Numbered from the stretch's first letter, positions 269 to 59,578 are shown. The stretch: DNA of 64,000 nt from an uncultured virus (IMG/VR IMGVR_UViG_3300021961_000087) (IMGVR_UViG_3300021961_000087), one strand, 5' to 3'. Numbers and translations: made by a program. The notes: generated by a model from the sequence alone, not told the origin.

Positions 269-2514
269 CTAATCAATTGACTTGTTGTTCCTTCGTTTTT
301 ATACTTAGCGAAGTTAATAATTAATTTTGATTCTTTTTTCTCCGGTGTATATAAGTGCTTTTGATTAGCCATTATACATAATCCTGAACTAATAGAAGCA
401 TCAAATCGTGTTCTATCGTTTATGTCAAACTTAGCCCAATCCTCAAGTGTTCTTGTAAATGGCATAGTACCCATTTGCTCCGGGTCTCTATACTTTGCTT
501 CTAAATCAAAACCTACAAACTTCTCAATGTAAGACTCAATAGCTGAGGCGTGTGCCTGTTTAACATCCTCAGATGAGTTGGGTATACCCCCTAACTCACG
601 CTCGGTCTTTGTCAATTTTGCTAATTGCTTATCGGGTCTATTAATAGAGTATCCCCTATACCCCCTGTTTTTTAGATGGTACAAAAGTCTCGGTTTGTTA
701 TTCTCTACTAAGATAGGCATTCCATAGAACACTATAGCCATAAGAACTTCTTCAAAGAATATTTCCGCAGTTTGTGGACGGGCAATATATTCTAAGAAGA
801 ACTCATTTACAGGAGCATCATCCATATGAAACTTGGTCATTCCGTGAAGTGCACCATTGGACCCACGTCCGCCAACTACGGCTGAGATGTCATAAGAGTC
901 ACAACCAAATGAACCAAGATGCTCATTGCCCGGATACTTAACACCATTACGTGTATGTACATTGTTTTGCATATGCTTAGGCGGTGCCCAACTAATATTA
1001 AACCTGCCTCTTGGGTCAGGTGTCCATATCACTTCAGTATCTTTAATGCCATCCTTCCACGAAAACATTCCACGAGTAAGGTAGTGCTCCTTAATCATTG
1101 AGTCGTTATAGTCAATTTGCTGATAAATTTTTGTAAGGTTGAACAAGGCTTGCTTGCTCTCGTCACGAAATGCGTGAGACTGCGTTCTCGGGAACTGACG
1201 GTAAAATTCGTTTAGTGCTTCAGCGTCATTCTTTAATGAATCAACTTCCGCTTCCCAATAGTCAATAGCTCCATTCTTAATTAGGTTCCCGTCTACACCC
1301 ATCACAGGCTCCTCAGGTTTCCGGAATACAGGATGACCATATCTATCAATGAATCCTTCCATATTCCACTCCATCGGAATGAATATGGCATATAGACCAC
1401 TTTTAGTCTGCCCATTGGCGTTACGAACCTTCACATTTGAATCCTCGTAAATATCTTTATAGTTCTGACCCCCTTTGCTTAAAGCATTGGACGTTGAGCC
1501 CATCATACACTTGCCGATAATCTTACTACCTAAGCGAAGACAGGTTTTGGTTACACGCCAATTCTCTTTAATGTTTACAGGCTTGGTCCACTTGGCAGAC
1601 TCATCGTGCGCCAAGAATAGTAGCTTCTCTCCATCGTATGAGTTATCCTCAGTATTTTTCCAATCTATTGATGTATCAAGTCCATCGACCTCATTGTCGT
1701 CAGTCTCGTACATATTCTTTTTAGTAATCTTAGCTGCCGGAACCCTGTACGCAAGCTCAGTCTTTGGCTTGTCCATACCGTCCATCACAGGCTTGAAAAA
1801 GAATGGAAGACGGCTATTAATAGGCACAACCTTGTCGGTGAACATCTTCTTAGCATCGGCACCTGTCTTGGATAGGATACCTATACGTGCGTCACGTGCG
1901 AGTGTACCTATGTTCACGCACTCAGATGATGACATAAACGAGAACCCCGAACGTCTAATCTTTAAGTATATCATACCAAAAGACCTTGGGTCAGCACGGC
2001 AGGCTTCCCAAAATATCCAATATATTCTATTTGCTTCACGGAAGTCAGGATAGCCAATGTCAATACTTGACCATTGCAAGTACATATAATGAGAGCCGGT
2101 TATGTAGGTTTTGATTCCGTTGTTTATAAACCAAAAACCTTGCTCACGGTAATCAAACTCTTGCTCGATGTAATCGACCCAACGGTTTTTAAACTCTTTT
2201 GGTTTTTCGTTCCATTGAAATATGGATTGAATTTTAGCTAAGTCTCTTGGCAATGGTTGACGTTCCCAATACTGCTCAGCTTTAGCGGAGTGTCTTTGAA
2301 GACACTTTTCGGGTGCTAATGGAAGTGCAATGCGTAACCCTTCTATCTCATATATTTCACCTATCTGTCCGGTTTTTGAAATGACAACAATATCATATTG
2401 GTCGTTATAGCCATACAGCCACGACTTCACTCTATTTTTATTAGAGATGACCGCAGGTGGGATATAATCCTTGAGCACCTTGCATAGACTATTGTTTTGA
2501 CCTTCGTTCTGCAA
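265..2514 (-). CDS. terL: Terminase large subunit
   Basis: 749 aa; 'LKIRRSGFS' Walker A-like, 'LAHDE' Walker B, 'MGST' coupling motif, 'FGCDSYD' RNase H-like nuclease motif; adjacent to portal. Confidence 0.9.
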   Translation of the reverse strand: MQNEGQNNSLCKVLKDYIPPAVISNKNRVKSWLYGYNDQYDIVVISKTGQIGEIYEIEGLRIALPLAPEKCLQRHSAKAEQYWERQPLPRDLAKIQSIFQWNEKPKEFKNRWVDYIEQEFDYREQGFWFINNGIKTYITGSHYMYLQWSSIDIGYPDFREANRIYWIFWEACRADPRSFGMIYLKIRRSGFSFMSSSECVNIGTLARDARIGILSKTGADAKKMFTDKVVPINSRLPFFFKPVMDGMDKPKTELAYRVPAAKITKKNMYETDDNEVDGLDTSIDWKNTEDNSYDGEKLLFLAHDESAKWTKPVNIKENWRVTKTCLRLGSKIIGKCMMGSTSNALSKGGQNYKDIYEDSNVKVRNANGQTKSGLYAIFIPMEWNMEGFIDRYGHPVFRKPEEPVMGVDGNLIKNGAIDYWEAEVDSLKNDAEALNEFYRQFPRTQSHAFRDESKQALFNLTKIYQQIDYNDSMIKEHYLTRGMFSWKDGIKDTEVIWTPDPRGRFNISWAPPKHMQNNVHTRNGVKYPGNEHLGSFGCDSYDISAVVGGRGSNGALHGMTKFHMDDAPVNEFFLEYIARPQTAEIFFEEVLMAIVFYGMPILVENNKPRLLYHLKNRGYRGYSINRPDKQLAKLTKTERELGGIPNSSEDVKQAHASAIESYIEKFVGFDLEAKYRDPEQMGTMPFTRTLEDWAKFDINDRTRFDASISSGLCIMANQKHLYTPEKKESKLIINFAKYKNEGTTSQLIR
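2290..2305. repeat. 16-bp near-palindrome GTGTCTTTGAAGACAC, copy 1 (inside terL)
   Basis: Exact match. Confidence 0.9.
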
Positions 2515-2779
2515 ATCCTTGTTTTGTATCGGTTTTACTTACTCCACGTTCTGCGGAGTCTAAGTTTTCTTTCTCTGCTTCTATTCTACTAAGTATCTCA
2601 AACGCATCAAAGATGGCTAACTTCTTAGCGGCTGCTGCATTCTTCATCTTATCAGCAGCCACATCAGGGTTATCTGAATCGGTATTGATAATATCTTCCT
2701 CAGCCACTTTCACAAGATGGTTGACAGCTTTATATCCGGCTTCAATAATGCGTAATTTTATTTCTTTGGTGTCTCTCAT
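2489..2779 (-). CDS. Hypothetical helical protein (possible terminase small subunit by position)
   Basis: 96 aa, overlaps the terL start; position only. Confidence 0.5.
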   Translation of the reverse strand: MRDTKEIKLRIIEAGYKAVNHLVKVAEEDIINTDSDNPDVAADKMKNAAAAKKLAIFDAFEILSRIEAEKENLDSAERGVSKTDTKQGFAERRSKQ

Positions 2780-3252
2780 TACTTTGCCTTTAAAAATATT
2801 ATCTGAACCAACCTTGCTGTTTCAGCTTCTCCAAAGTTATCAAATAAATTCCTCGAGTGTGGAGCGTCTGAATTAAACGCAATCATACGATTAAACTTAG
2901 AGTACATCGTTAAGAGTGGCTTTTTATGTTCATCATATATGGTTGTGCCATCATCCTCAGGAGCCTGCTCGTTTAAATATAAAAGACAAGTAATGTCACC
3001 CATCATCTCGTCTGTATGTATAAAGTTTGGCTCTTCTTGGTTAAGCGGAGACTTACGAATAAAATTTAAGTCTACCTTGTAACCAAGGAATAAGTTGGTA
3101 ACGTATAAGGCAAACTCATCGTTATTGTCACGAGGTTGAATGTTCCTGAATACGTTGTCACCATCTGCCACGTCTTGGAACTCGTGAATGTGGATGTCTG
3201 ATACATAAGCAATTGGGTCTTTAATAACGTTGTCGAATGTGATTAGATTCAT
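2779..3252 (-). CDS. 2OG-Fe(II) oxygenase superfamily protein
   Basis: HxD (FIHTD), 'LLYLN', 'GTT', 'FNRMIAF', distal His (PHS) and Arg (RLVQ) pattern. Confidence 0.75.
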   Translation of the reverse strand: MNLITFDNVIKDPIAYVSDIHIHEFQDVADGDNVFRNIQPRDNNDEFALYVTNLFLGYKVDLNFIRKSPLNQEEPNFIHTDEMMGDITCLLYLNEQAPEDDGTTIYDEHKKPLLTMYSKFNRMIAFNSDAPHSRNLFDNFGEAETARLVQIIFLKAK

Positions 3253-3812: not shown

Positions 3813-4039
3813 TAAAAATTTATATTGTATTCAATTGAAATTGGTATTGTGGCATTAAACTCTTTCCAAAGCAAAACCTCAGCTTTATCATTAATAATAT
3901 ATATTTTAATAGATTGTCTTTCGGCATCAAGTTTAATTAAGTGTATCTCATTGGTATCACCAAGCACTTTCTGCCCTACAATGTAGTGCATTGCGCCTCC
4001 TTTATAATCCGGTCCTATTGATATTTTGCGTATGTCCAT
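3812..4039 (-). CDS. Hypothetical protein
   Basis: 75-aa ORF tightly coupled in the operon. Confidence 0.7.
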   Translation of the reverse strand: MDIRKISIGPDYKGGAMHYIVGQKVLGDTNEIHLIKLDAERQSIKIYIINDKAEVLLWKEFNATIPISIEYNINF

Positions 4040-4259
4040 TATTATTACTTTTATTATTTAGACCAAATTTAATCCATTTATACCAAATACGCTCGTGAAT
4101 ATAATATTGAATAGGCTTATATACTAATTCAGCAACACTAAATGCTGCGCCAACTTTTACTGAGCCACTCATAAACCACATTAGAAAAAATCCAATTGCA
4201 GTACTTACAATTCTGTAACTAATAGTTTTAGCTATATGTCTTTTCTTTTGAACTATCAT
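4002..4259 (-). CDS. DUF2061-like small membrane protein
   Basis: 'KTISYRIVST...YYIHERIW' signature with two hydrophobic segments. Confidence 0.75.
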   Translation of the reverse strand: MIVQKKRHIAKTISYRIVSTAIGFFLMWFMSGSVKVGAAFSVAELVYKPIQYYIHERIWYKWIKFGLNNKSNNNGHTQNINRTGL

Positions 4260-4633
4260 AATCCTAAATCTTTTCTTATTTTGGTTGCAGATATTTCAGC
4301 TATTTCAGTTGGAGGTATATGCTCAATAATATCGTAGCCTACACCTCTACCAAAGTTGACAGAAGAAATATCAGGAACAACCATTACTGATACGTTAGGA
4401 TTGTCTTTGTACTCTTTTTTAATTGTATCCAATACTTCATTAACAGGAAAAGGATTCTTTTCATCCGGCTCTACATCTCTTATCCCAATTAAAACTCTTC
4501 CTCCCTCATCCAACACTTGTTGAAACATCTGTCTGTGCGCTTCGTGTATTGGCTGCCAACGACCTATAAATAAAGACCATTGGTTATTTTTACGTTGCAT
4601 TGAACTTGCAACGTGTACTTTTTTACTCCACAT
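4256..4633 (-). CDS. HIGH-superfamily (cytidyltransferase-like) nucleotidyltransferase; candidate minimal ATP sulfurylase
   Basis: 'FIGRWQPIHEAH' (HxxH) and 'ISATKIR' motifs; adjacent to APS kinase. Confidence 0.75.
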   Translation of the reverse strand: MWSKKVHVASSMQRKNNQWSLFIGRWQPIHEAHRQMFQQVLDEGGRVLIGIRDVEPDEKNPFPVNEVLDTIKKEYKDNPNVSVMVVPDISSVNFGRGVGYDIIEHIPPTEIAEISATKIRKDLGL

Positions 4634-5039
4634 ATGATTTGATTTGATTTAAGCATTGCTCTACCGTTAAGTTGTCTGTGTTAATCTGTAAAAATGTCTC
4701 CAACTCAGGCTCTTCAAAGTCACTTACGTGAAAATGTTCTCTGCCTCTTGGATTTGTATAAGTAAGATAAACCCACTTCACATCATCAGTAAGACTGTTT
4801 AAGTAGTCTCTTGCTTCTTTGTATGGATAAACCAACGATAAAACCACATCCTCACCTTCGCTATTTATATAATGAGCAATATCACTTGCCCTGTTTAAGT
4901 TTCTAATACGACCTTCTTTGCTATAATCTTTGTTGGCAAATAGTTCTCTTAGCTTATCTCCGTCTATATTATGAACACCGATTTCATTTGCTAATGTTGT
5001 CTTACCACTATGAGGTTGACCAAATAATACTATTATCAT
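4623..5039 (-). CDS. cysC: Adenylyl-sulfate (APS) kinase-like, compact
   Basis: P-loop 'GQPHSGKTT', 'IDGDKLR', 'DYSKEGRIRNL', 'FEEP'; start taken at MIIVLFG, which overlaps the upstream stop. Confidence 0.75.
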   Translation of the reverse strand: MIIVLFGQPHSGKTTLANEIGVHNIDGDKLRELFANKDYSKEGRIRNLNRASDIAHYINSEGEDVVLSLVYPYKEARDYLNSLTDDVKWVYLTYTNPRGREHFHVSDFEEPELETFLQINTDNLTVEQCLNQIKSYVE

Positions 5040-5854
5040 TTTGAATATTTGAATTGTTGAAAGAACCATTGATAGTTATCCCATATCCAATTAGTCACGT
5101 CTTTTCCTAAAAGTTGTTTTGCTTTTGAAGGAACCGGCTCTAACTTAGTTCTGATGACGTGGTCGCCAAAGCTGCCATAGACCTCATCGTCTTCTTTTGT
5201 TACTTGCTCTATGTTATCCCAATCATGTTTAAAATATGGAATACCTAAGTACTCATATATTTTAATCATAGTAGTGTCAGGATATAAGCATAGGTCTTCA
5301 AACTTTACAAATAATATGTGCTTATCTATACCCAATCTATATAACTCTTGAAGTCTTTCAATAGCTAATCCAACAGGTTGAGACTGTGCCCATATGTCAA
5401 CACGCTTAGGAACTGTTGTACCTTGCATTTGTGCCCAATTAAGAATAGCATTTGCCTTGTCAGGATTCTTTCTGTAGTTATTCTCCATAGAAGCAAATAT
5501 GTCTCTAAGGTCCCTTACCATACATATAATCTTTGGCTCAGGGTGAATAAAATTAAGGAAGTCATAATGGATTCCCCATCCACGAGATTTATCTACAACA
5601 TACTTCTTGTCGGTAATAGCATTGTAATAAGCTGTCATACCCTCCTTGCAAAATGCTTGGAAAGCTGTTTTCATTACCTCAGGGTCCTGTGCTTTAAACT
5701 CAGGAGAGTCTGTATAATTACCTCTTGCTGCAAATACAAGTTCTAATACACCTGATGTAGGTGTTGCGTATATGTCAGGATTCTGTGCTAATATATTTTG
5801 CAATAAAGTTGACCCTGCTCTTGGCAAGGAACTTTGATAGAATATTTTGTCCAT
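5036..5854 (-). CDS. PAPS-dependent sulfotransferase
   Basis: 5'-PSB loop 'SLPRAGSTLL', 'DKSR', 3'-PB 'MVRDLRDIFAS', 'VKFEDL'. Confidence 0.85.
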   Translation of the reverse strand: MDKIFYQSSLPRAGSTLLQNILAQNPDIYATPTSGVLELVFAARGNYTDSPEFKAQDPEVMKTAFQAFCKEGMTAYYNAITDKKYVVDKSRGWGIHYDFLNFIHPEPKIICMVRDLRDIFASMENNYRKNPDKANAILNWAQMQGTTVPKRVDIWAQSQPVGLAIERLQELYRLGIDKHILFVKFEDLCLYPDTTMIKIYEYLGIPYFKHDWDNIEQVTKEDDEVYGSFGDHVIRTKLEPVPSKAKQLLGKDVTNWIWDNYQWFFQQFKYSK

Positions 5855-5855
5855 A

Positions 5856-6731
5856 TTATTTTTTAAGAGATGCTATAATCTTATCTACGTCAAATATTTC
5901 ATCCTCATTGTTATAAGGAAACTCTAATAAATCACCTGCGATATTATACTTCTGTAAGAATGAATTTCTTAACTCAGGTTTTTTAGTTTGAGGATTTGCT
6001 AAAATATTGTCGTGTAAGCTATGACCAAAAACAACCGGTGTATTGGCTATCCAACATACAGTACTTGGTTTGTTAATGGCAGCAGCAGCGTGCTGACCAA
6101 AACTATCCATAAGTAATCTTTTATCGCTCAGTTCAATTAAGACTGCTAATGCTCTAAAGTTATCTGAAACTGTATAAGTGCCATCGTATGACAATTGGTC
6201 TTCTCTCCTAATATGAATAATGTTATATTGACTTTTAAACTCTTCTATGATTTTTGTTACAACGGTTGCAGGAATATCTCTTGCCCAAGAATACTTTAAT
6301 TCTTGTTGCGCTGCACCACCATTGGTCTGTAATAAAAGAATAGGTTTGTCTGATGCAAACTTTTTAGAGAAGAAAGATTTCTCTCTATCTGTAATAAATA
6401 ATTCGGGATTGGTTGACTCAGGTGTCTCAATACCAAACATATTACACCACGTGTGTACTAAATGTTCTGACTGAGATAAATGACCTGCTTCAAAATAAGG
6501 GTCGTGTCCAAGAAACTTGAACTCTTTGTTTTCAATGTAGTCTTGGTAAAAGTACTGAGTACCACCAAAAGCAAATGCTCTGTCTACATTAGGGTTATCC
6601 AAAAACACTTCAGGATAACCACTCATTACTATTAATTGCGAATCAGGGTATTGTTTTTTGATTTGCTTACATACTGCCGTAGACATTATGGCTTTACCAA
6701 TACCCCCATTAATTTGGAATATTATATTCAT
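5856..6731 (-). CDS. GT-B glycosyltransferase, GT9 (heptosyltransferase)-like
   Basis: 'GGIGKAIMST' N-terminus, 'VFLDNPNVD', C-terminal 'DSFGQHAAAAINKPSTVCW' typical of GT9-like proteins. Confidence 0.7.
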   Translation of the reverse strand: MNIIFQINGGIGKAIMSTAVCKQIKKQYPDSQLIVMSGYPEVFLDNPNVDRAFAFGGTQYFYQDYIENKEFKFLGHDPYFEAGHLSQSEHLVHTWCNMFGIETPESTNPELFITDREKSFFSKKFASDKPILLLQTNGGAAQQELKYSWARDIPATVVTKIIEEFKSQYNIIHIRREDQLSYDGTYTVSDNFRALAVLIELSDKRLLMDSFGQHAAAAINKPSTVCWIANTPVVFGHSLHDNILANPQTKKPELRNSFLQKYNIAGDLLEFPYNNEDEIFDVDKIIASLKK

Positions 6732-20049: not shown

Positions 20050-20388
20050 TTAAATATTTGAAACTCTTCTACCCATACCAACTCTTGACTTCTCAGCTTT
20101 CTTAGCGGCAAGTTTAGAAGGACTTATTTCCGACTTTGTTGTTGGTGTCTTTGAAGACACTCTCTTTGTTGGTCTGCAATATTCATTGCTACCACCTGCA
20201 CCACAGGCTTTACCTGTCTTTGTATCCTGCCACTTTTCTTTCTCCCACCTTTTCAAATTACTACCTGCCTCAGTCTTTCGCACGCTGCCGGAACTCTTTC
20301 GACATTTAGCAATGGCTTGAGAAGCCCTTGCCGATGGAAAGACATCGTAGCTTGCTTTGACTTTTTTATAACAGGCATCCTTTGGCAT
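20050..20388 (-). CDS. Basic Cys-containing hypothetical protein
   Basis: K/R-rich; 'LKRWEKEKW..CG..YCRP' motif. Confidence 0.7.
   Translation of the reverse strand: MPKDACYKKVKASYDVFPSARASQAIAKCRKSSGSVRKTEAGSNLKRWEKEKWQDTKTGKACGAGGSNEYCRPTKRVSSKTPTTKSEISPSKLAAKKAEKSRVGMGRRVSNI
20145..20160. repeat. 16-bp near-palindrome, copy 2 (inside 20050..20388)
   Basis: Exact match. Confidence 0.9.
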
Positions 20389-24838: not shown

Positions 24839-25393
24839 AATAATTGTTTTAAAACGAATGCGAAATATTTCAGGGTAAAGATAATTAATTTTTAGATACT
24901 CGTAGTGTTGGGGCTATATAGCGGTTTGGCGAGCCGGCTCGCGAAACGAAAGTCAAATTTTTTTTAAGGGGTGGGGGTCGGTTTTGGTTTGCCCTTGTCG
25001 GTTTTTTTGGCTTTTCCTATGGCTAGCCGTAGCGCCTGCACCTGACCGCCTGAAGCGTACCACCCCACCGCCTGCACCACCTGACGAACCGCCCGAGCGT
25101 AGCGCGTACGCTCACGCGCTGCGCCCTTCCCCGTCCTTCGCAACCTGAACCCCTTTAGTTTTCTTTTTGTCTACCTAGAAAGACAAAGGAGCCAACCCCC
25201 CGCCCGTGTTCTGCCTGCCTAAACTTTCCGCGCTACTCACCGCCAAAAACTTTTGGCGCGTGTTAATGATTTGTTAAAGCCTAAAAAATAATTAAAATAA
25301 ATTTGTTTTGTACTAGAATTGTACATATATTGCACAAGAATTGAACGGGGTAAAATAGCCCTAATTTACTAAATCATTGAAAATCAATTAGTT

Positions 25394-25657
25394 ATGAACT
25401 ATCAAGAATTTAACGTTACCCATTGGCTTCCTACACTGCCTGAGTTGGTGGAGATGTACAACCAAAGACGCGGGAAAAGTTCAAAGACCCGTTTTATTAA
25501 CGAGTGCTTGAAAGAATACAACGAAACGCGCCAAGACCTAGTTAACGCCCTAGCGACTAGCCCCGTTGGAATGCTTCACGGAGCGACACACACGAGCCGC
25601 GACCTTATCAAACTAGACCAACACATTAATAATATTTTAATTTTAAAACACCTTTAA
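25394..25657 (+). CDS. Early hypothetical protein
   Basis: First ORF of the + strand cluster. Confidence 0.6.
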   Translation: MNYQEFNVTHWLPTLPELVEMYNQRRGKSSKTRFINECLKEYNETRQDLVNALATSPVGMLHGATHTSRDLIKLDQHINNILILKHL

Positions 25658-25659
25658 AA

Positions 25660-25794
25660 ATGAAAAAGTACACCTTTAAAATCGGGGTTAAAGTGTTAGA
25701 GTTAAACTCTACGAGTATTGAGGCGGCATATGATACCGCCCGAAAGATAAAAGACCAATTTAATTGGAAAGGTCAAATATTACTAATCAACTAA
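25660..25794 (+). CDS. Small early protein (44 aa)
   Basis: Manually translated MKKYTFKIGVK...ILLIN; A-rich leader. Confidence 0.5.
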   Translation: MKKYTFKIGVKVLELNSTSIEAAYDTARKIKDQFNWKGQILLIN

Positions 25795-25805
25795 AAATTA
25801 AAAAA

Positions 25806-25910
25806 ATGGGACAATTTATAAGCCTTTTTGAACTTATCGCGGTGGCGTCTTTGTGCGTTATCCTTTACGTATTAGCTAAAACTATTTACCAAACTTTAAA
25901 AAATAAATAA
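25806..25910 (+). CDS. Small single-TM early protein (34 aa)
   Basis: MGQFISLFELIAVASLCVILYVLAKTIYQTLKNK. Confidence 0.5.
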   Translation: MGQFISLFELIAVASLCVILYVLAKTIYQTLKNK

Positions 25911-25911
25911 A

Positions 25912-26139
25912 ATGTTTACGAGAATCAGCAACAACACAAACGGGAATCCTCGCTACGTTATCCACTACCTGCAACTAGCGAACGACTACACGCGCGCAAT
26001 ATTCTTAGCCAAGAAATTAGGCGGGCGCAAATTTCACAATAAGCAATACGGGGGCGGGATAGTGTTTGAATCTTACAACACTGACGACCTAAAGGAAAGA
26101 ATTTACAAACTAAAACAGGAAGAATATGAAGCCCAATAA
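25912..26139 (+). CDS. Early hypothetical protein
   Basis: 75-aa ORF, 'NGNPRYV' motif. Confidence 0.65.
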   Translation: MFTRISNNTNGNPRYVIHYLQLANDYTRAIFLAKKLGGRKFHNKQYGGGIVFESYNTDDLKERIYKLKQEEYEAQ

Positions 26140-26314
26140 AATAACATTAGACCACGGCGGGACGTACAAGAACGAAACAACGGAGCCGCTTTTTTATGTG
26201 GTTGAATGGCTGAACGCCTTCGGACTTTACCAAGTCAAGACCGAGCAACTCAACCCGAGCGAATCAATAACAAAGACCAACCCGAGTAATAAAATAACAA
26301 TTTACACGCGATGA
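26126..26314 (+). CDS. Early hypothetical protein
   Basis: 62-aa coupled ORF. Confidence 0.5.
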   Translation: MKPNKITLDHGGTYKNETTEPLFYVVEWLNAFGLYQVKTEQLNPSESITKTNPSNKITIYTR

Positions 26315-26595
26315 AATACCCACAAACACAATACAACGAACTCAAAAGCGCCCTAGTGATTTTAAAAAATCATTACGACCTAGACAAAGAAACTGCAACG
26401 GCTTACGCGCCAACGCTTTATTTTAAAATCTTTCAGCAAAAGACGTACCAAGACCAAAACGCAAACGTAGTAAGAAACGCGGACGGCTCGCGCCTGATGA
26501 AGTTAAACGAAGCGTTTAAATTGTATCCTGACGGGTGCAACGAATCCCACGTAAACACGGCAATGAAAAACGCCATAAAAGAAATATTCAACTAA
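26311..26595 (+). CDS. Early hypothetical protein
   Basis: 94 aa, ATGA overlap with the upstream ORF. Confidence 0.65.
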   Translation: MKYPQTQYNELKSALVILKNHYDLDKETATAYAPTLYFKIFQQKTYQDQNANVVRNADGSRLMKLNEAFKLYPDGCNESHVNTAMKNAIKEIFN

Positions 26596-26609
26596 TAAAA
26601 TCAAATCAA

Positions 26610-27176
26610 ATGAAACTAACAATTGAACAAAAAGAAGCCAACAAAGTAGCAAGACAAGAAGCCCGCAAAGAAGCTAAGCGCGTGGCAAAGATTGAAGCGG
26701 AGCGCAACCAAAAGCCCGTTAAAAGCATTGAATTTAGCATTGAGTGGAAAAAGTCGAGAACGTGGGGCAATTGCCCCCGTTTAGACGCCTTTATAATTTA
26801 CCAAGACGGCACGACTAACCGCGTAAGCTCGTACGCTTCAGGTTATGGCTACGACAAAGAAAGTACAGTAATTGCGGACGTGTTCAACGTGGCGTTAAAA
26901 TACAAAATCTACCAACTAGCCGAGGGCGTGGAGTTGCCGTACGGGATACGAAACGACTACTATAAAGGCTTTTCAGGTGGTATCGGGGTAAATTGTTACT
27001 ACGACATTGCCAAGGCAATAGGCGGAGAATTTAAGAGAGTAGCAACCGGAAAAACCTTTGACGCCTACACATATACGGACAACGAAGAAGAAGAAAAAAA
27101 ACAAGCTGATAAAGATTATAATTCAGCATTGGAGCAAGATTTTCAAAGATATGAAGCCCTACACGAACGCGGTTAG
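26610..27176 (+). CDS. Early hypothetical protein
   Basis: Start MKLTIEQ after AAATCAAATCAA; 'ASGYGYDKES' motif. Confidence 0.7.
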   Translation: MKLTIEQKEANKVARQEARKEAKRVAKIEAERNQKPVKSIEFSIEWKKSRTWGNCPRLDAFIIYQDGTTNRVSSYASGYGYDKESTVIADVFNVALKYKIYQLAEGVELPYGIRNDYYKGFSGGIGVNCYYDIAKAIGGEFKRVATGKTFDAYTYTDNEEEEKKQADKDYNSALEQDFQRYEALHERG

Positions 27177-27187
27177 TTAGTAAATAG

Positions 27188-27240
27188 GCTACCCCTTGAA
27201 CGCTTCGGGCGTTACTTAGAGCGATACTGACAAGGGGGCA
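27188..27240 (+). ncRNA. Structured intergenic RNA element (three-way junction, mini-tRNA-like)
   Basis: Stem CCCCTTG/CAAGGGG enclosing hairpins AACGC-TTCGG-GCGTT and TTAG-AGCGATA-CTGA. Confidence 0.5.
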
Positions 27241-27268
27241 AATTTTTTTAAATCAAAATCAAATAAAA

Positions 27269-27595
27269 ATGATACAAACAACTAAAGGCGGTTTGCCGTC
27301 AGTAATTACCTCGATTAGCAACGCTATTGCAACGCTCGAGGGTGCAAAAGTTAAAAAGTTTTACCGCGTATATGACACGCAAACAGGTTGCTATTTTGCA
27401 ACAGGTTACAATGCTACGAGTATTAAAGAAGTGGTTGAAGGCTTCGCCTCGTACATACTAATGACCAACGAGGTAGAAGACAACGAAGACAACAAAGACG
27501 GGTTTTTGTCTAGTTGGGAAGGAATAGCCGACTATATGCAAGGCGTTGAACTAGAAAGTAGTGAAAATAAATTTGAAGAATTAGATAATTTTTAA
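27269..27595 (+). CDS. Early hypothetical acidic protein
   Basis: 108-aa ORF. Confidence 0.65.
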   Translation: MIQTTKGGLPSVITSISNAIATLEGAKVKKFYRVYDTQTGCYFATGYNATSIKEVVEGFASYILMTNEVEDNEDNKDGFLSSWEGIADYMQGVELESSENKFEELDNF

Positions 27596-27605
27596 ACCAA
27601 ATAAA

Positions 27606-27956
27606 ATGAAGCAAATTTTAAGAAAACGAAACAAGTTGGTGCAAATGGCTATCAACTTAAAAGGCGAGGAACTTAAAGCGGTTGAGTTCTCAATTAAATT
27701 AATTGATTTTATGCTCGATGTGGCAAACGCAGACGCAGACCAAGACGGGCGCAAATACATTTGTATAAATTACGATGTACTTTATTTGGACGAGTTAGAA
27801 CATTATTTTATAGATTCAAATCCTTTCGTGTATGCAATAGACGAGAATGGTAAGGCGCTCGATGAAGACTTGAACGAATATAGGAACGAGAACGGGGAGT
27901 GCTTATACATACCAAGTGAAAAATGGGAAAATTTTAAACAAATAAAATTTAATTAA
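27606..27956 (+). CDS. Early hypothetical protein
   Basis: 116-aa ORF. Confidence 0.65.
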   Translation: MKQILRKRNKLVQMAINLKGEELKAVEFSIKLIDFMLDVANADADQDGRKYICINYDVLYLDELEHYFIDSNPFVYAIDENGKALDEDLNEYRNENGECLYIPSEKWENFKQIKFN

Positions 27957-27957
27957 A

Positions 27958-28389
27958 ATGAAACAAGGACAAAAAGTAATTTACAAGGGCGAGATGCGAA
28001 TAATTTATGACGTGTACCCCGACAACATGGTAAGCCTTTGCCTAATGGACGAGGACGGAGAGCATTACGATGACGTGGAAGAAGATTTTCAGGTATCAAT
28101 TAATGACCTGATGACGTTTGAGAAAAAGGAATTTGACTTTGTACTAGACACAAAACTCTCAATTTGGAGCAGGCAAAAATTTACTATCGAGGCGGCAAAT
28201 CTCGATGCGGCAAAAGAGATTGCAAGGAAAATGGTTGAGGACGGCGAGGAGATAGACCCATACGCCGTTGACTTTATCTATGAAACCGAGGACGAAATGA
28301 CCCCCGAGCAGAACGGCGGACACGCTACCGTGGTGCTGATGTACAAGGAGAAAAACAATTCAATAATCTACAAAAACGCTGAGAGATGA
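27958..28389 (+). CDS. Early hypothetical acidic protein
   Basis: 143-aa ORF, probably two small domains. Confidence 0.65.
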   Translation: MKQGQKVIYKGEMRIIYDVYPDNMVSLCLMDEDGEHYDDVEEDFQVSINDLMTFEKKEFDFVLDTKLSIWSRQKFTIEAANLDAAKEIARKMVEDGEEIDPYAVDFIYETEDEMTPEQNGGHATVVLMYKEKNNSIIYKNAER

Positions 28390-28715
28390 AATACCGAGTA
28401 GTAAAAAACCAAAAGGAAAAGACTTTGGACATATTCACCGAGGACGGTGGATTTGTGGAAATATACCACAACGGCGACCAATTTATAAGCACGATGCACT
28501 CTATTAGGTTGACCGAGGTGGACAAGAGCGACTATCCAAACCTATGGGCAAAGTTATCCGAGGGGAATAACTGCGTGAAGGAATGGGGCGAAAATGACAC
28601 CGAGGACGAAATGATTGCGCACGCTCTTTATTGGTTGGTTATGCCAACGCCTGACAAATGGGAACACGACAATAAATTATTTGACAACATTTTAAAAAAA
28701 GCCTACAAGTTATGA
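28386..28715 (+). CDS. Early hypothetical protein
   Basis: 109 aa, ATGA overlap. Confidence 0.65.
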   Translation: MKYRVVKNQKEKTLDIFTEDGGFVEIYHNGDQFISTMHSIRLTEVDKSDYPNLWAKLSEGNNCVKEWGENDTEDEMIAHALYWLVMPTPDKWEHDNKLFDNILKKAYKL

Positions 28716-28906
28716 CACAAGAATTAAACACAGTACAAGGACGCAACGAGATTTTACAACCAATTTTGGACAGGTTGTTATACCTACCTGACGACCAAAA
28801 GGCACAGTTCGTTAGCTACCTAGACACGTTAAATAGTATGTATCAAATTGACGTAAAAATCATTGACGGAATCCGAATCTATGACCTTAAAAAATTTAAA
28901 AAATGA
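28712..28906 (+). CDS. Early hypothetical protein
   Basis: 64 aa, ATGA overlap. Confidence 0.6.
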   Translation: MTQELNTVQGRNEILQPILDRLLYLPDDQKAQFVSYLDTLNSMYQIDVKIIDGIRIYDLKKFKK

Positions 28907-29094
28907 GAGCATTAAATATCACAATCGAAGACCAAAAAATAGACATTGATGACGTTATCAGCGCACTAGATGACGAGGGGTATATCGTTCTAAGGGTTGA
29001 CACTATGGAGCAGAAGGATAAAATCAGCAAGTTCCTAGAGGAGTTATACCCGCACTATAATTCAAGACCTGAATTTATTACGTTAAATTTTTAA
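28903..29094 (+). CDS. Early hypothetical protein
   Basis: 63 aa, ATGA overlap. Confidence 0.6.
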   Translation: MRALNITIEDQKIDIDDVISALDDEGYIVLRVDTMEQKDKISKFLEELYPHYNSRPEFITLNF

Positions 29095-29152
29095 AAAATA
29101 TTTTGATATGTTTAAATTTAGTCGTAATATCGTTCAATAATTAATCAAATCT

Positions 29153-29305
29153 ATGTCAATGAATTATTTTATCTTAGCTATGAGTTGTTTTATGAGCGCA
29201 ATGGTGGGTTGCTTTTTAGGTGCCTACATCACTTATAAATCAATGAAAGTAATCGTTAGGCGCAAGGTCGCTAGTATTTTAAAACAGCAAAATCAAGACA
29301 AATGA
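29153..29305 (+). CDS. Small membrane protein (50 aa)
   Basis: Manually translated MSMNYFILAMSCFMSAMVGCFLGAYITYK...; ATGA overlap with the next ORF. Confidence 0.5.
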   Translation: MSMNYFILAMSCFMSAMVGCFLGAYITYKSMKVIVRRKVASILKQQNQDK

Positions 29306-29529
29306 ACATCTTTAAAATTAGAACATCAGCGTGGGACGAGGAGTGTTTTATACTCGCAACGCAATTAAGTGAGAAGCAAGTCCGCTCAGTTATTCAACCA
29401 ATGGTTGACGAGGAAAGAGAAGGCGACTTTATATTTAGCAATGACGACTATGTTCAAGTGCTTAGAGATGCCTATCCTAAATCAGTAATACTAACCGATA
29501 ATGGCGACACACAAGAAATCGTTTTTTAA
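29302..29529 (+). CDS. Hypothetical protein
   Basis: 75-aa ORF. Confidence 0.65.
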   Translation: MNIFKIRTSAWDEECFILATQLSEKQVRSVIQPMVDEEREGDFIFSNDDYVQVLRDAYPKSVILTDNGDTQEIVF

Positions 29530-29671
29530 CGTAGCAAAAGCTATTGCTTATTTGTTATTTCACTTAGTGTGGTTCTTTGTTGTATCCATACCACTAGCAT
29601 TCGCATTACTATTAACCGTTGAAATCTTATCATTAATCAAATCAATATGTCAAAAAATCACTACGAGATGA
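29501..29671 (+). CDS. Small membrane protein (56 aa)
   Basis: Manually translated; long hydrophobic stretch; fills the gap. Confidence 0.45.
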   Translation: MATHKKSFFNVAKAIAYLLFHLVWFFVVSIPLAFALLLTVEILSLIKSICQKITTR

Positions 29672-32561: not shown

Positions 32562-32577
32562 GTGTCTTCAAAGACAC
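32562..32577. repeat. 16-bp near-palindrome, copy 3 (inverted, intergenic)
   Basis: GTGTCTTCAAAGACAC, the exact reverse complement. Confidence 0.9.
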
Positions 32578-32582: not shown

Positions 32583-32674
32583 AGTCAGATAGCTTAATGG
32601 TCATAATTGAATTGACCCTTGAGGAATTAGAGCACTCGTAAGAGATGGTGTGGGTTCGACTCCCACTCTGACTA
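32583..32674 (+). ncRNA. tRNA-like RNA lacking a canonical anticodon arm, with a hairpin inserted in the D-loop
   Basis: Acceptor AGTCAGA/TCTGACT, TA linker, D-stem GCTT/GAGC, T-arm GTGGG-TTCGACT-CCCAC; anticodon arm reduced to CTC-GTAA-GAG. Confidence 0.7.
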
Positions 32675-32750
32675 CAACTAATCATTGGCTTAGCCTCAGA
32701 GGTTAATGGTTGGTACAAATAGACTGAGGCAACAAATAAATTCAAGAACA

Positions 32751-36324: not shown

Positions 36325-37769
36325 TTGAACGTACCTCAGGATACAGTAACAAAGCAATGTGGGAGTACTGCGAGATGCTCAAAGGAGTTGTGCTTCAAAC
36401 AAAGATTACCAAATCAGGACGAGGCAAAGCAGTTGAGATACGAGAAGTTCTTAAGTACAACACAGAGCAAGAAGTTATAGACAAGATTGTCAAGAGTTGT
36501 GAGCATTATAAAAACTTATACGAGATGGAGCAAAATAAATTTCAGTTCAGAGATTATCAATCCGACATCATTACAAAGGGCTCTCAGATACTTACCAAGT
36601 ATCGGTTCTTATATCTTGCAATGGAGGTTCGTACCGGCAAGACGCTTACAAGTTTGGGGATAGCAGAAGAGTGTCAGGCACAAATGGTTTTGTTCATTAC
36701 AAAAAAGAAAGCCATCAGCACAATAGAAGCAGATTATAATACGTTAAAGCCATCATACAATATGACGGTAATAAACTACGAGAGTTTGCACACCGTAATG
36801 GATGAGTGGAAGTGGGACTTAATTGTTTGCGATGAGGCACATAGTATGGGGGCATTCCCAAAGCCAAGTGGCAGAGCCGAGTTGGTAGCACAAGTGATTA
36901 AAAAATGCAGACCAATGGTGATACTGCTTAGTGGAACACCAACACCTGAGTCATATTCACAAATGTATCATCAGGTCTATGCGATACCTAACAACCCGTT
37001 CAAAGAGTTTAAAAACTTCTACCGTTTCTGCGACAAGTATGTTAACATCAAACAGCGTAAGATTAACGGACTGTTCGTTAATGATTATAGCGGTGGACTT
37101 GATACCATCCTCAAAGAGATGGAGCCATACACCATTAACTACACACAGCAGGAGGCAGGATTTATGGCTGAGACCAAGGAAGAGGTATTAGAGGTAGAGA
37201 TGAAGCCATCGACTTATGCGATGATAAAAAAATTAAAGAAGGAATTGGTAATAGAAGGTAAAGAAGAAATAATTTTGGCAGACACTCCGGTTAAGTTGAT
37301 GATGAAGGTGCATCAGTTAAGTAGCGGCACGATTAAATTTGAGAGCGGCAACAGTATGATACTTGACCTCAGTAAGGCTGAGTTTATCAAAGAGCAGTTT
37401 GAAGGATGCAAGATTGGAATCTTCTACAAGTTCAAGGAAGAGTATAACGCACTCAAGCAAGTATTTGGCGATGACTTAACCTCTGAGTTAAGTGTCTTTG
37501 AAGACACCAATAAGAACATAGCATTGCAGATTGTAAGTGGACGTGAAGGAATCAGTTTAAAGCAGGCTGAGTATTTGGTCTACTATAACATTGACTTCAG
37601 TGCTACGAGTTATTGGCAGAGCAAAGACCGGATGACTACAAAAGAACGCCTCGAGAATCAAGTATATTGGATTTTTACAAAGGGTGGTATTGAATATGAC
37701 ATCTATAAAGCTGTCACAAAGAAGAAAGATTATACGGTTAATCATTTTAAACAGGACTTTTATTTATGA
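36321..37769 (+). CDS. SF2 (SNF2-like) helicase
   Basis: 'FRDYQ', 'RTGKT', 'DEAH', 'SGTP', 'GREGISL', 'QSKDR'. Confidence 0.85.
   Translation: MIERTSGYSNKAMWEYCEMLKGVVLQTKITKSGRGKAVEIREVLKYNTEQEVIDKIVKSCEHYKNLYEMEQNKFQFRDYQSDIITKGSQILTKYRFLYLAMEVRTGKTLTSLGIAEECQAQMVLFITKKKAISTIEADYNTLKPSYNMTVINYESLHTVMDEWKWDLIVCDEAHSMGAFPKPSGRAELVAQVIKKCRPMVILLSGTPTPESYSQMYHQVYAIPNNPFKEFKNFYRFCDKYVNIKQRKINGLFVNDYSGGLDTILKEMEPYTINYTQQEAGFMAETKEEVLEVEMKPSTYAMIKKLKKELVIEGKEEIILADTPVKLMMKVHQLSSGTIKFESGNSMILDLSKAEFIKEQFEGCKIGIFYKFKEEYNALKQVFGDDLTSELSVFEDTNKNIALQIVSGREGISLKQAEYLVYYNIDFSATSYWQSKDRMTTKERLENQVYWIFTKGGIEYDIYKAVTKKKDYTVNHFKQDFYL
37492..37507. repeat. 16-bp near-palindrome, copy 4 (inside the helicase)
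   Basis: Exact match. Confidence 0.9.
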
Positions 37770-38836: not shown

Positions 38837-39239
38837 AACAGAGGTGGACTTAATAAGAGAGAAAAAAGCAATTGAATTATTCGTTAGCATCTTCGGAGGC
38901 TCATATTTAAAACTTGACCCACACGATATTGACTACAAAATATTTGACAAAGACAAGAACCTAATAGCTTATGCTGAGGTTAAGGGTCGTATTAGGACAA
39001 TGCGAAATGCTTATCCATTACCTATTGCCGCAAGAAAATTAGTCAAGTTAATTGACAAGAGATTAGCACCCGTATTGATATGGGCGTGCGAGGATGGTAT
39101 CATATACGGCAAAGCCAACAAACTTTACGGTGAGATTAAATGGGGAGGTCGCCCTCCCCGTGATGGTTCTTTTAGTGATAATGAGATGATGGTATATTAC
39201 GATAAGCAGAAGGAACTAAAGTACATTAGATACGTTTAG
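38826..39239 (+). CDS. PD-(D/E)XK-like nuclease
   Basis: 'IDY...YAEVKGR'. Confidence 0.6.
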   Translation: MTFETEVDLIREKKAIELFVSIFGGSYLKLDPHDIDYKIFDKDKNLIAYAEVKGRIRTMRNAYPLPIAARKLVKLIDKRLAPVLIWACEDGIIYGKANKLYGEIKWGGRPPRDGSFSDNEMMVYYDKQKELKYIRYV

Positions 39240-45200: not shown

Positions 45201-47179
45201 GCAGTTGGCATCCCCATAATGAAACCACCTACTGCTTCTTGCGCTCCTGCTTTAGCTACTTCTTTAACCCATTCGGCAGTAAATGTCTTTGGGTTGTCAA
45301 ACATCTTCGTGCCTTTTGCTGCATTGTAAATATCCTTGATAGCAAACTCAGCCGCTTGTTGTGTTGCTCCTGTCTCAGCCTCCGCTAGACCTGCTGCAGT
45401 CAAAGTAAGCGCACCTTTAGCAACCATACTCTCAACCTCATTCTGAACAAGTTCTTTAAATGTACGAGCAGTAGTTGTAGCGCCTGCTTTACCAAGTGCT
45501 TTTAACGCTAAATCGTTTAATAATCCTTTGCTTCCAACTGCATTCCTAAGACCAAACTCTTCAAGTACCGCTCCCGCTATACCAATTGGTATCATAACAG
45601 CAGCTTTTTCATTCTCTGACACATCTTTAAATTCAGGATTGTTGTCCATCTCTTGCTGTAATCCATCGGTAACTTGAGCGTAAAATGCTGCAGTTGTTAA
45701 GGCTCTTCCTGCCAATCCTCCTCCTATTGAAGGAGCCATTGCAGGCAATGATTTTATTAAACCGGCGTAAGCGCCTCCCCAAAACCCTTGCTCTTTTAGT
45801 CGCATCCATTCAGTAGTTGTAGTTGGGTCTCCAAGAACAACCCTGTTACCTTCTCTTACGGCAGGTAGTATATCGGCTTTAATTTGCTTCTTACCTAAAT
45901 CTCTTATCTTATTTTCTATCTTATCCTTTTCTGATTGACTCAAAGAGTTCAACCATTTATCTTCAGATTGACCAATACTTGGTTCTCCTATACCCAACTC
46001 TTTAGCGATACGCAAAGATTCTGACTTCCATTCTTTTGGAGCCATTAGCATTTCTTTTGGCAAAAGACCAACACCGATGTCTATTAATGAACCGGTAGCA
46101 CCTGCTACAACACTTGATGAGCCTTCTAGCAACCAATTCCAAGTACCACCCAACCAACTACCTTGCTGCGATTTCATATCAGCATAACGACCAACTGCTT
46201 TATCTAAATCTTTAGATTGGCTTTCAATTTTACTTTGTCTTGATAGGAGTTGTTTTCTTTGCTCATCTAACTGTTGTTGCTTTTGCAACACAGATTGAGA
46301 CTTTGCTATATATTCAGGAGTATTTTTTAAATTTTGCGGAGTCTTTGACAACTCAGCAAACTGTGCATCTAATTGATTCTTTTGCTTTAAGAAACTACCC
46401 ATCTCTTTACTAAGAGTTGTAGCATCATCGTTTACTTTTTTAATAGATTCATCTACATCTTTTTGAGTCTCAAACTTTTTATTTTCAGCAGCGTACGACC
46501 TTTCAATAGCTGAAAGACCTTTTACTTGCGCTGAGTTTTCTTTAATAAACTTCTTTAACCTTTCAGATTCAGACGTTGCTTTTGAACTAAATAATGGGTC
46601 TAATGATATTTCAATTGTTTTACCATTAGGAGCAGTTGCTGTCATCCAATCACCTGTAGCGCCTGATTCTTGAAATTTAAAACCAAGGTCAGCAAATTGG
46701 TAGTTCATCTTAGGTACAACAAACTCTTCGTTCTTATTAATTAACTCAGGAGTAATTGTCTGTAATGATGGCTCAAGAAAGTCTAATGGTTGCTTTGCTT
46801 TTGGAGCAGGCTTAACTCCTGCTAGTGGAGTTGCCTCAAACTTCGGAAGTTGTTTTTGTGAATCCAAAAAAGAAGGAGCCGATGGTAATGCCGCAGCGCC
46901 AAACGGAGTCTGTCCTTTTTTTTTTAAATCAATGGGTCCTTGCCCGGGTTGGGTAGGTTGAGCAACAGGTTCTTCAGGCTGAGGAGTTAAACCACCACCT
47001 GAATATTTCTGAAAAAAAGATTCTCTATCTTTTGTATACAAACCATCTCTTGAAACGACATCGAACACCTTATCTTTATAGGCTTGGTCTTGCCCCCATT
47101 TTGACTGAAACTCTTGAAAAGACTTAGTGTATTTACCTTCTCTAACCAATACATCATACAGTTTCTGTAACTCGTCCAT
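39236..47179 (-). CDS. Very large internal virion (ejection) protein with zincin-like HExxH
   Basis: 2647 aa helical; 'PHEIWHA' at 43625-43639; P/E/T-rich linker; last gene of the structural block. Confidence 0.65.
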   Translation of the reverse strand: MDELQKLYDVLVREGKYTKSFQEFQSKWGQDQAYKDKVFDVVSRDGLYTKDRESFFQKYSGGGLTPQPEEPVAQPTQPGQGPIDLKKKGQTPFGAAALPSAPSFLDSQKQLPKFEATPLAGVKPAPKAKQPLDFLEPSLQTITPELINKNEEFVVPKMNYQFADLGFKFQESGATGDWMTATAPNGKTIEISLDPLFSSKATSESERLKKFIKENSAQVKGLSAIERSYAAENKKFETQKDVDESIKKVNDDATTLSKEMGSFLKQKNQLDAQFAELSKTPQNLKNTPEYIAKSQSVLQKQQQLDEQRKQLLSRQSKIESQSKDLDKAVGRYADMKSQQGSWLGGTWNWLLEGSSSVVAGATGSLIDIGVGLLPKEMLMAPKEWKSESLRIAKELGIGEPSIGQSEDKWLNSLSQSEKDKIENKIRDLGKKQIKADILPAVREGNRVVLGDPTTTTEWMRLKEQGFWGGAYAGLIKSLPAMAPSIGGGLAGRALTTAAFYAQVTDGLQQEMDNNPEFKDVSENEKAAVMIPIGIAGAVLEEFGLRNAVGSKGLLNDLALKALGKAGATTTARTFKELVQNEVESMVAKGALTLTAAGLAEAETGATQQAAEFAIKDIYNAAKGTKMFDNPKTFTAEWVKEVAKAGAQEAVGGFIMGMPTAVSAAYTKKGFLNMDDATFKTFESAANDENIQKAFVTKLKNQVNQGEITIDQAKETLNNYRNSVGLFKSMPEGLNLEGKKNAMNLLKEKKDLENQIIGKDPALVKKQKDRISQIDSELNKISETATDVTEMPDAISSLKDDEQISFSVNSLDEVPEQFRDRAVKKEGMQIEVREKIFGLPIGKKTSMVVNDGYRYTLTGKEAKDYAIQKQATDESVLRAGEPQVGLPKVGEGDQGPQVAATGTEAKVTTEGGTEEVKPTTTVTPIAEPTVEPTVAEPIEEPAGEPVAEPTEEEIVDSIVADQTDESQNEGYEYTDLYNRDPRLAALESQKDMLKYTSGQDYIDALVGLGETQEGALERQTRAIQGYTRNINALENSLKVTPAAEPVIQPAEPTIAEPTVEPTTEPVTTEPVEEPTVKPVAQEPKTKTARRAAAASNISSLTKNAMKSLNSIFPNVPVKAFKNIKELRAFVRKALGDKSARSLSDGTKGVLFSMRYIKDGYVVKQPRFILLNDEIRTPTTLPHEIWHALLAKAFGDNAKNKTLFKKFRKSIDGTLRKNGYNELADKLNQFADQPSYKRKGESAEEWLVQLGAYMTESGFKPGSLTTNQKSVLVQLKDIINKYAIKLFNTPVFLEDATADNILEFITTISDSLRRGEDLNKYFRESKLATATNAEINDILNADVVDDFESTMGGIRDIIAVGKQRNTDKDILTAKALRYLTNSTAYKNADDTQREQMYREVRDTLGFKQKSAPSVTRLKGGTAPIEGELTFDSFFGKVKKGEKITMTEKQGLYKQIKDLARGAKDAKKAWVEISKDLAKGIKELITKGTITTTQAKNVISKMSKVNMFSKKSVDGFLDYMTKVFENAEYAANLDAAKKLRKDIKKLSKNKDKNANVTDLARRFSEINPSMVDDINEYNEIASKVKSATRGSTIRGEKVSFANAVNIQETNEYINKTLEAQDKELRRQKAEEIQELMGVDASKLSYDEMMQLLESEEPITKYNEGVIRDTINKMFDLYSAFINDMLENNEDIDFTNKQKDLVKRFMGMNLNLLTPKEALEAVDALSNFMENGSTARMEAVLADYTGEFNSDVLAKKGIKASPISKYWSTMFGRYLAAYTTNLNILFEKMFKGFNRGGLVEDLSGVTKIKRGNAVANRLSNEISNEYVKKFFDRKANGEAFNTAYNSIEREVIARTIKNIPGTEAEIKEEFERKKTLIKETIAEMKKGDAQEVENAALVQKAYDKLLKDSNSVDDVIKKADEVNMEAVDFWIQKWSDVYDEFADISLNVYNKILERDTNYTPDRYVRSQAAMAPVDFDMNASAFHTNNNTLYKKESGVLMKATRPTTLPKNMYLSMSFDKNMANSMHDALVDVHTAIPIRQAQSFLNSDNYSKIVPDSKDAKLLAARIGLYVQNIRKKNPYANDELSDMLRKINKIANIGVGQALGGVTQPFKQMIPVAMNTIINAGSLNLGTLLNQGKNGFIDRSGYEIANRGVEAQAQIESLNKIIEQAAKSKGAKAFKLIEDANKKWLDIVLVKPDVFIARASWITYYEQSLKKQGIDPKTIDYNTHEVNEKAADYAQRMVDRQQNISDADLAGKMFVSKQASTQILVKLLMPFASFRMNQSARLGADLAVLSDNTASIEDRKIAARSLAGFAAEMLTFKMVSAGTIILLGSLAKLAMGKDEDEEEKKKRIDEVLKGQRTSMVTDMLSPIPVADKAVQAGSNYLLNTVQNYLEIPKEEQFSIYGAGGGQEILKSLGMFGIAADRAAQLLEVSKLAATGEYTDDFGKEKTISEKDRQALLPFVGAAILSNVGLAPTEVSSVVKYAVKAAKTKTKTPEEKAAEKDREIQKEEETYQKIEALDRLRESATSQEELDAIDEKIGEIEATPEEKKAMAEDKKAERELKRDLLTDPETGEEYDNETELKRYNPTLYNQNFGPQSEWYQEHRAEKEVQKKMNKEIRKMEDTEEGYVAPTKKRTSKRNSDGSIKRRN

Positions 47180-49862: not shown

Positions 49863-49863
49863 A

Positions 49864-56816: not shown

Positions 56817-56817
56817 C

Positions 56818-57741: not shown

Positions 57742-57752
57742 ATCTTAATATT

Positions 57753-58691: not shown

Positions 58692-58705
58692 TAGTTCTTT
58701 TTTTA

Positions 58706-58751
58706 CAAATATACATAAAAAAAAAGAGGGCACAATAAGTGCCCCCTCTTT
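58706..58751 (-). terminator. Terminator followed by a -7 promoter box
   Basis: GAGGGGGCAC-TTATT-GTGCCCTC followed by a T run, then TATATTTG at 58713-58706. Confidence 0.65.
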
Positions 58752-58778
58752 CAATCATCAATCAATAATCAACATCTA

Positions 58779-59522
58779 TTATCCTAAAGTTGCTTCTAAC
58801 ATCTTTAAGGAATCAATCCCTTCATCGCTCTGTAAGAAGTGGGCTACCATATCATATGGGTCTTCTCCGAACGGAACTGACAACATCTTCTTTTTATTGG
58901 TAGCGGTATTAAACCACACCTCTTTGTCGCCATTTCTTAATATCAATAACTTGTTCTCAAAGAATAAACGAACCTTTGCTTGGAACTTCAATTCAGGGTC
59001 GTTTAATATACTCAAGAACTCCTTAGGTTCTCTTTTAGCAAATACCAAGATGTCACGCTTTAACTCAGCAGTAGACACGGTAGATGGGTCTTTACCAAAC
59101 ATTACTCTTGTAAGAGTTTCAATTTGGTCTATTGAAAGCTGACGTGCTTCAACTAAAGCCTCAATCTCTAAGTCCAAATCTTGAACCTCTGCAGCAGCGT
59201 CTTTCTCTTTGTCCACTTCAGCGAAGATGGTACCATTTAATGGATGGTAATGTAAGAATTGCTGTAATACAGGATTGTTCTTTGGGACACGTAGAAAGCC
59301 ATCTTCAAAGATGATTGGCTCTAATGTAAAGTTCCCGTCTTGCTCGTCCTCAAATGGGGACTTCTGATTCGTTGCATATCTCAATGCACGATTAACATTG
59401 TTCTTCTCGTCAAACCACATTAGTGGGAATCGAGGATGGTTTCTTGAAGCTAATGTATAGCTCAATGGATTGCCTATTTTCAGCTTGTAGACTTTGTCTA
59501 CAGGTGTTGTACTTTTTGCCAT
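58779..59522 (-). CDS. Conserved hypothetical protein following the capsid gene
   Basis: 247 aa; 'RALRYA.NQKSPF.DEQ', 'IIFEDG.L.V'. Confidence 0.65.
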   Translation of the reverse strand: MAKSTTPVDKVYKLKIGNPLSYTLASRNHPRFPLMWFDEKNNVNRALRYATNQKSPFEDEQDGNFTLEPIIFEDGFLRVPKNNPVLQQFLHYHPLNGTIFAEVDKEKDAAAEVQDLDLEIEALVEARQLSIDQIETLTRVMFGKDPSTVSTAELKRDILVFAKREPKEFLSILNDPELKFQAKVRLFFENKLLILRNGDKEVWFNTATNKKKMLSVPFGEDPYDMVAHFLQSDEGIDSLKMLEATLG

Positions 59523-59546
59523 TTTGTATTTGATTTAATTTGATTT

Positions 59547-59578
59547 AAAAAAGGAGAGTGTCTTTGAAGACACCCTCC
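59547..59578 (-). terminator. Terminator after the major capsid gene, built on the 16-bp repeat
   Basis: GGAGGGTGTCT-TCAA-AGACACTCTCC followed by T6. Confidence 0.75.
59558..59573. repeat. 16-bp near-palindrome, copy 5 (inside the capsid terminator)
   Basis: Exact match. Confidence 0.9.

Follow-up and report, generated by a model that had tools for sequence, protein, structure and literature searches.

The window, the whole 64,000-nucleotide stretch of DNA analyzed here, comes from an uncultured virus (IMGVR_UViG_3300021961_000087) whose full phage record is 64,490 bases. Its terL, capsid, and GroEL genes relate it to Elemovirus, Callevirus phi38:1, and Panino, and the host is presumably a member of the Bacteroidota. 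Positions 1–25 form a short fold-back that overlaps the record end, with the portal gene spanning the join, and look like an assembly-end artefact. Genes for DUF2061, a cytidylyltransferase-like protein, APS kinase, and a sulfotransferase lie in a row at 4002–6731, with a 3,280-aa fibre-like gene upstream. A 16-bp palindrome recurs along the window: a scan found exactly five matches, four on the plus strand (2290, 20145, 37492, and 59558) and one on the minus strand (32562), against none in 100 shuffles. At a tolerance of three mismatches, a single extra place (4708) appears, which is at chance level, and no other degenerate copies exceed chance. The sites and the one terminator built around them are as follows.

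2290..2305, no strand assigned, dyad site in terL, codons 70–75, read KCLQRH here versus DCYKRS-type residues in site-less relatives
20145..20160, no strand assigned, dyad site in the DUF5872 basic protein gene, codons 77–82, read RVSSKT
32562..32577, no strand assigned, dyad site between the exonuclease gene and the tRNA-like gene, ending 5 nt before the latter at 32583
37492..37507, no strand assigned, dyad site in the SNF2-type helicase gene, codons 401–406, read SVFEDT here versus DEFNST-type residues in site-less relatives
59547..59580, minus strand, predicted intrinsic terminator 3' of the major capsid gene, a 13-bp stem and a U run around a dyad site (z −5.7)
59558..59573, no strand assigned, dyad site forming the core of that terminator

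The initial annotation had described five exact copies, three of them read differently in terL, the basic protein, and the helicase, one inside the capsid terminator and one 5 nt ahead of the tRNA-like RNA, and each of these points holds. The other four copies fold weakly (z −1.3 to −3.0). The tRNA-like gene itself (32583–32675) has a long D-to-anticodon region with a 28-nt insert and an odd anticodon arm; ARAGORN assigns it to Val, and the Rfam tRNA model scores it at 42 bits.

A scan of IMG/VR for GTGTCTTNNAAGACAC yielded an estimated ~1,700 stretches. Across relatives, the consensus is the dyad GTGTCTT-YR-AAGACAC, with a YR centre in 158 of 164 distinct contexts, so that the element first called a near-palindrome is better defined as a perfect 7-bp dyad around this centre, which occurs in both orientations. 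Records carry from 1 to 21 copies within one mismatch (28 records picked by motif). Conservation was also followed at synonymous positions, in genomes mostly chosen for holding the motif somewhere, a choice that favours the result: among pairs with the same amino acid, codon identity inside the site is 0.97 both in terL (16 genomes) and in the helicase gene (17 genomes), against 0.50 and 0.45 over the remainder of the respective gene, and none of the 732 (terL) or 471 (helicase) other gene windows is as high. For DUF5872 (11 genomes), the values are 0.73 in the site and 0.47 elsewhere. The conservation at the DNA level proposed earlier is upheld and, since site-less relatives have other residues at the same codons of terL and the helicase gene, the sites overwrite the proteins. 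Homologous sites occupy corresponding codons across many divergent contigs; they are conserved in related genomes and do not stem from an adapter. Searches of the main texts of openly accessible papers found neither the motif in a phage context nor anything on the associated protein or its dyad site; for the motif they listed two unrelated papers on human cell biology.

In the relatives, the early arm begins with the gene of a ~210-aa protein, here called P211. Most loci place one site 205–316 bp upstream of the P211 start. Between the first site and the putative −7 box downstream of it lie at least ~140 bp, and boxes are absent near most sites; a classical promoter operator was rejected because most sites lie away from TAnnTTTG, which we take to be the promoter box consensus. 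Downstream of P211, the first site lies no more than 50 nt from the stop codon in 37 of 55 loci, and neighbouring sites are a median of 1162 bp apart; 169 of 195 early sites fall outside ORFs (background 16%). This intergenic enrichment may only reflect where sites arise cheaply. Distal sites recur in the helicase gene, a giant virion protein, the capsid terminator, terL, DUF5872, or groEL, with gaps of 7–25 kb versus ~1.1 kb at the early end. Private dyads, with arms other than the common ones, are confined to the first 6–11 kb in G039, G060, and MW202828, and these three genomes and G049 have stretches of 46–54 kb free of sites; such confinement is the pattern that an early arrival of the module, with a later gain of distal sites, would produce. 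Two regions of the window touch on this layout. A 2,647-aa gene that belongs to no family (39236–47179) probably encodes an ejected virion protein and contains a site in many relatives. A GC-rich segment with a C-run (24900–25260) lies between the diverging late and early arms, close to where many related contigs end, and is a candidate genome end or packaging region.

The P211 gene and the arrays of sites occur together. Selecting records by capsid only gave the motif in 15 of 50; of the five near-complete records, one had it. A de novo dyad search applied to motif-negative records revealed that several of these have a different 16-bp dyad built on the same T-YR-A core (the first five entries in the following list of variant dyads, given by arm).

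GTACGGT, in G039, 7 copies
GACGCCT, in G060, 9 copies
GGGGGTT, in G062, 13 copies
GTGTCGT, in MW202828, 15 copies
GTGTACY, in G038, 4 copies
GTCTCTT, in L500, and GTATCCT, in L526

When 2,414 ORFs of 31 records were clustered, the P211 family was present in 13 of 14 records with a GTGTCTT array, in all four with a variant array, and in none of the 13 others; the sole GTGTCTT-array record that lacks it is the genome studied here. With seven records added, arrays were found in 23 of 23 P211 records. Six P211-less records whose early regions are missing (G024, G033, G041, G042, G054, and G066) were left out; among the eight with an intact early region (G014, G034, G040, G067, G069, elemoA, phi38:1, and Panino), seven are site-free and G014 has one site. 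A substitute repeat was sought in 10 P211-less records, and none was found beyond the window's own five sites. Loci fetched by P211 protein have a site within one mismatch in 70 cases and a related dyad in the other two (72 loci), in a search that was seeded from motif-picked genomes, many records having been chosen by motif. One of the P211 loci, L495, has three sites with common arms and non-YR centres. G024 carries five near-palindromic units in 63-bp steps at 33585–33900 (L547), which are not the P211 dyad.

On a quick terL tree, P211 was lost at least four separate times, and G034 keeps a decayed copy of the site, a two-mismatch remnant. Directly 3' of P211 lie an amidoligase-like gene and a GATase-GGACT-zinc-ribbon fusion (L369:15809-16915 and L369:18462-19361), both absent from the studied genome, which track the arrays almost as tightly as P211. 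Against them as readers, both encode enzymes, and G034 has the two of them and neither P211 nor an array. We consider it very probable that P211 reads the dyad, and the likely reader of the window's sites is then a gene that the studied genome no longer has.

P211 forms a large family, with at least 897 clusters at 90% identity and 360 at 50%, and it matched no known family in Pfam, PHROG, and PDB sequence searches or by hmmscan. In the predicted structure, a helical N-terminal domain (pLDDT 96 when modeled alone) is joined by an acidic linker to a C-terminal domain of the strand-strand-helix type; helices make up the 210-aa model as far as residue 155. Foldseek matched the model to no solved structure, and fold searches returned only four viral relatives. 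Over 44 columns, the segment EEIGNKVFGWQKSYFYKVVK can be aligned in register with the helix-turn-helix (HTH) of 10 ParB-family proteins, a weak match (E 0.003, probability 10%) whose score of 21.9 compares with at most 14.5 in 30 controls. The atlas gave two leads, the ParB HTH (TM 0.36) and DUF3102 (PF11300), the latter with feature scores of 0.91 and 0.88 and no match by hmmscan. A later helix has R in 77 of 136 aligned P211s, and dimer prediction scored 0.40, the mark being 0.42. The putative recognition helix is most changed where the dyad is most changed (MW202828, G039, G060, and G062), and the mapping between helix and site is not one-to-one: G038 combines a near-consensus helix with another dyad, and G003 a changed helix with the common one. 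A sample of 401 Bacteroidota genomes contained no P211, the single match (E 5e-5) lying in an unrelated-looking 434-aa ORF, and a scan with the G039 protein recovered only itself.

The studied genome encodes no P211 in any of the six frames, and the place of the gene is taken by a different segment.

25020..29630, plus strand, foreign early module at the place where relatives carry a dense cluster of sites, P211, and the amidoligase-like/GATase pair, itself containing neither a site nor P211

The sister genome G027 is 85–96% identical up to window position 25,018, where a site and P211 follow. The segment from ~25.0 to 29.6 kb has no counterpart in the 37 other records compared, and its CpG odds rise to 1.2–1.5 versus 0.56–0.8 elsewhere; one gene of the module is shared (86%) with an otherwise different, site-free contig. 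Two sequencing runs, each from a different study, contain 0.92 and 0.89 of the words in the 24.0–31.5 kb segment; one of these runs may be the source, and a chimeric assembly behind the swap is unlikely. The window sits on a very short branch beside G027 in the quick terL tree. Since this sister keeps P211 and the early site, the loss appears recent enough to have left the sites undecayed, and the five remaining copies are best read as recent orphans of a lost P211.

The initial annotation had proposed a genome-wide binding site; a putative protein-binding site acting at the DNA level is supported, and the readers named for it are not. The two DNA-binding proteins encoded in the window, a wHTH protein (21700) and a DnaA-IV-like protein (30787), would explain why the sites stay perfect, as both genes are present here and in nearly all array records and the five sites are intact in a genome that has no P211. 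Both genes also occur in site-less relatives: where the early region is intact, the wHTH gene is present in 8 of 8 site-poor records and the DnaA-IV-like gene in 5 of 8. The retention of P211 and the early site in G027 makes the loss a recent one; an operator of either protein is quite improbable. The alternative of a protein-bound RNA hairpin or a processing signal draws on the 6–7-bp stem that each copy can fold, on the copy that is a terminator core, and on the stem extension by at least one pair in 135 of 265 distinct early-region sites. In the same set, T6C, which breaks the sense-strand stem, is as common (19) as A11G, which keeps it by wobble (17), and 130 sites have no extension, which points to double-stranded DNA with two half-sites. 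Together with the two centre orientations and the weak folding of four window copies, these counts make an RNA element very unlikely. A host protein (ParB, MatP-like, or LexA-like) would also account for sites retained in the absence of P211, and a host parS/matS-like site had been suggested. The motif stands at chance level in GTDB genomes (~350 matching stretches in 596 Gb versus 278–626 expected) and is spread over unrelated phyla, which argues against a host site; the clearest multi-copy contig among the 80 matches listed is 56 kb, phage-sized, and relatives use private dyads. A host reader is hardly credible.

A dispersed centromere for plasmid-like maintenance, of the parS or N15 sopC kind, would fit a 16-bp dyad, the weak ParB-type HTH and the R-S helix that follows it, and private specificities that resemble incompatibility groups. 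It is improbable, as a CTPase domain does not fit the 210-aa, mostly helical P211 model, no ParA is found in the window or among the shared ORF families of the 31 records, and P211 is absent from the 401 host-phylum genomes. The main rival to the reading set out below keeps P211 as the reader and gives it a structural role: P211 would coat, bridge, or compact the incoming genome, aiding entry or shielding the DNA from host translocases and nucleases, in a lattice for which matS and Noc serve as models. Site density that falls from the early end (one per ~1.1 kb) to gaps of 7–25 kb, distal sites that overwrite codons at any position in unrelated genes, the distance of most sites from promoter boxes, and a first gene whose product has a separate C-terminal strand-helix domain are all consistent with this role. 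Against it stand the repeated losses of the system (at least four), the 46–54 kb without a site in four genomes, and the reliance on the early end entering first, which is presumed; private specificities and the site right after the P211 stop are left unexplained. We regard a structural lattice as possible and rather doubtful.

Our preferred reading is that the dyad is a double-stranded DNA site of P211, a predicted HTH protein, acting as a stoperator-like roadblock, and that the genome studied here no longer carries the gene or the early sites; we give the whole of it a probability of about 0.47. If P211 is the reader, a roadblock function is slightly favoured in our judgment. P211 would be made first, from a host-type early promoter, and would bind the dyad as a dimer, one subunit at each half-site. 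At sites just 3' of the P211 stop and at gene junctions farther along, bound P211 would limit transcription that reads through into the early genes beyond, and co-infecting relatives that share its specificity would be silenced as well. Point mutation would add the distal sites at a later stage, and a switch of specificity or the loss of the early cluster, as here, would allow escape from a resident's P211. The roadblock reading agrees with the position of a site behind the stop codon, with private specificities, and with the joint loss of gene and early sites. Against it, no integrase, ParA, or parAB was found in the window and no prophage with P211 among the 401 Bacteroidota genomes sampled, so that a dormant state for a repressor to keep is hypothetical, and the sites are symmetric, unlike stoperators.

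Known systems offer partial parallels. The stoperators of Cluster A mycobacteriophages (L5, Bxb1) are described in PMC6550527 as 13–14 bp, asymmetric, oriented, and monomer-bound, with 20–30 per genome in temperate phages. The P211 sites share with them a genome-wide distribution mostly unlinked to promoters, a single (here predicted) phage protein, and a motif that varies together with the protein between relatives, a covariation that is imperfect here for mild variants. They differ in being a symmetric 16-bp dyad of 5–20 copies in both centre orientations, several of them in essential genes, and in the absence of an integrase or parAB, the unrelated protein family, and the gene's place as the first of the early operon. 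KorB of plasmid RK2, a sliding clamp that depends on CTP and is locked by KorA, acts on OB operators (PMC11790492), dispersed palindromes that, like the P211 sites, often lie far from promoters, and a ParB-type HTH is the only, weak, profile match of P211; unlike KorB, P211, at ~210 aa, is too small to accommodate a CTPase domain, and a search for a partner found none. ParB/SopB with parS/sopC (PMC3597684) likewise combine a 16-bp palindrome with an HTH and a later helix bearing a basic residue. Here, however, there is no ParA, no CTPase domain, and no plasmid state seen, and the P211 system is dispensable. Dispersed sopC sites are a feature of phage N15. ParZ of Borrelia, which according to the preprint (bioRxiv 10.1101/2022.07.05.498848) works with ParA on a chromosome, is a small non-ParB site-binding protein with phage relatives and sites at its own gene. 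P211, whose binding is predicted, lacks a ParA, and the likeness is one of description. These four are the nearest kinds, and the P211-dyad system departs from each on a tested feature. By terL, capsid, and GroEL, the window phage shares genes with the group 2 Flavobacteriaceae phages near Cellulophaga phage phi38:1 (PMC5332604) and with Elemovirus, Callevirus, and Panino; the three cultured genomes of the phi38:1/Elemovirus/Panino group that were examined have neither P211 nor any array.

For the phage group, the system may amount to a self/non-self lattice in lytic phages that have no lysogeny, in which the first protein made marks its own genome at private palindromes and shuts down kin with the same sites. 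We put this forward as a tentative and rather unlikely proposal. If true, the lattice would drive specificity switching and place sites in essential genes at an amino-acid cost, and the studied genome would be an escape variant that discarded gene and early sites together. A protein family of at least 897 clusters with no Pfam, PHROG, or PDB match gains a predicted DNA target, in a phage group that is very widespread in aquatic settings (~9,700 IMG/VR stretches match its capsid patterns). With at least seven protein-site pairs available from nature, the binding code can be tested directly, and these pairs are possible orthogonal DNA-binding parts; the natural losses and switches offer a way to ask whether apparently lytic phages police co-infecting kin.
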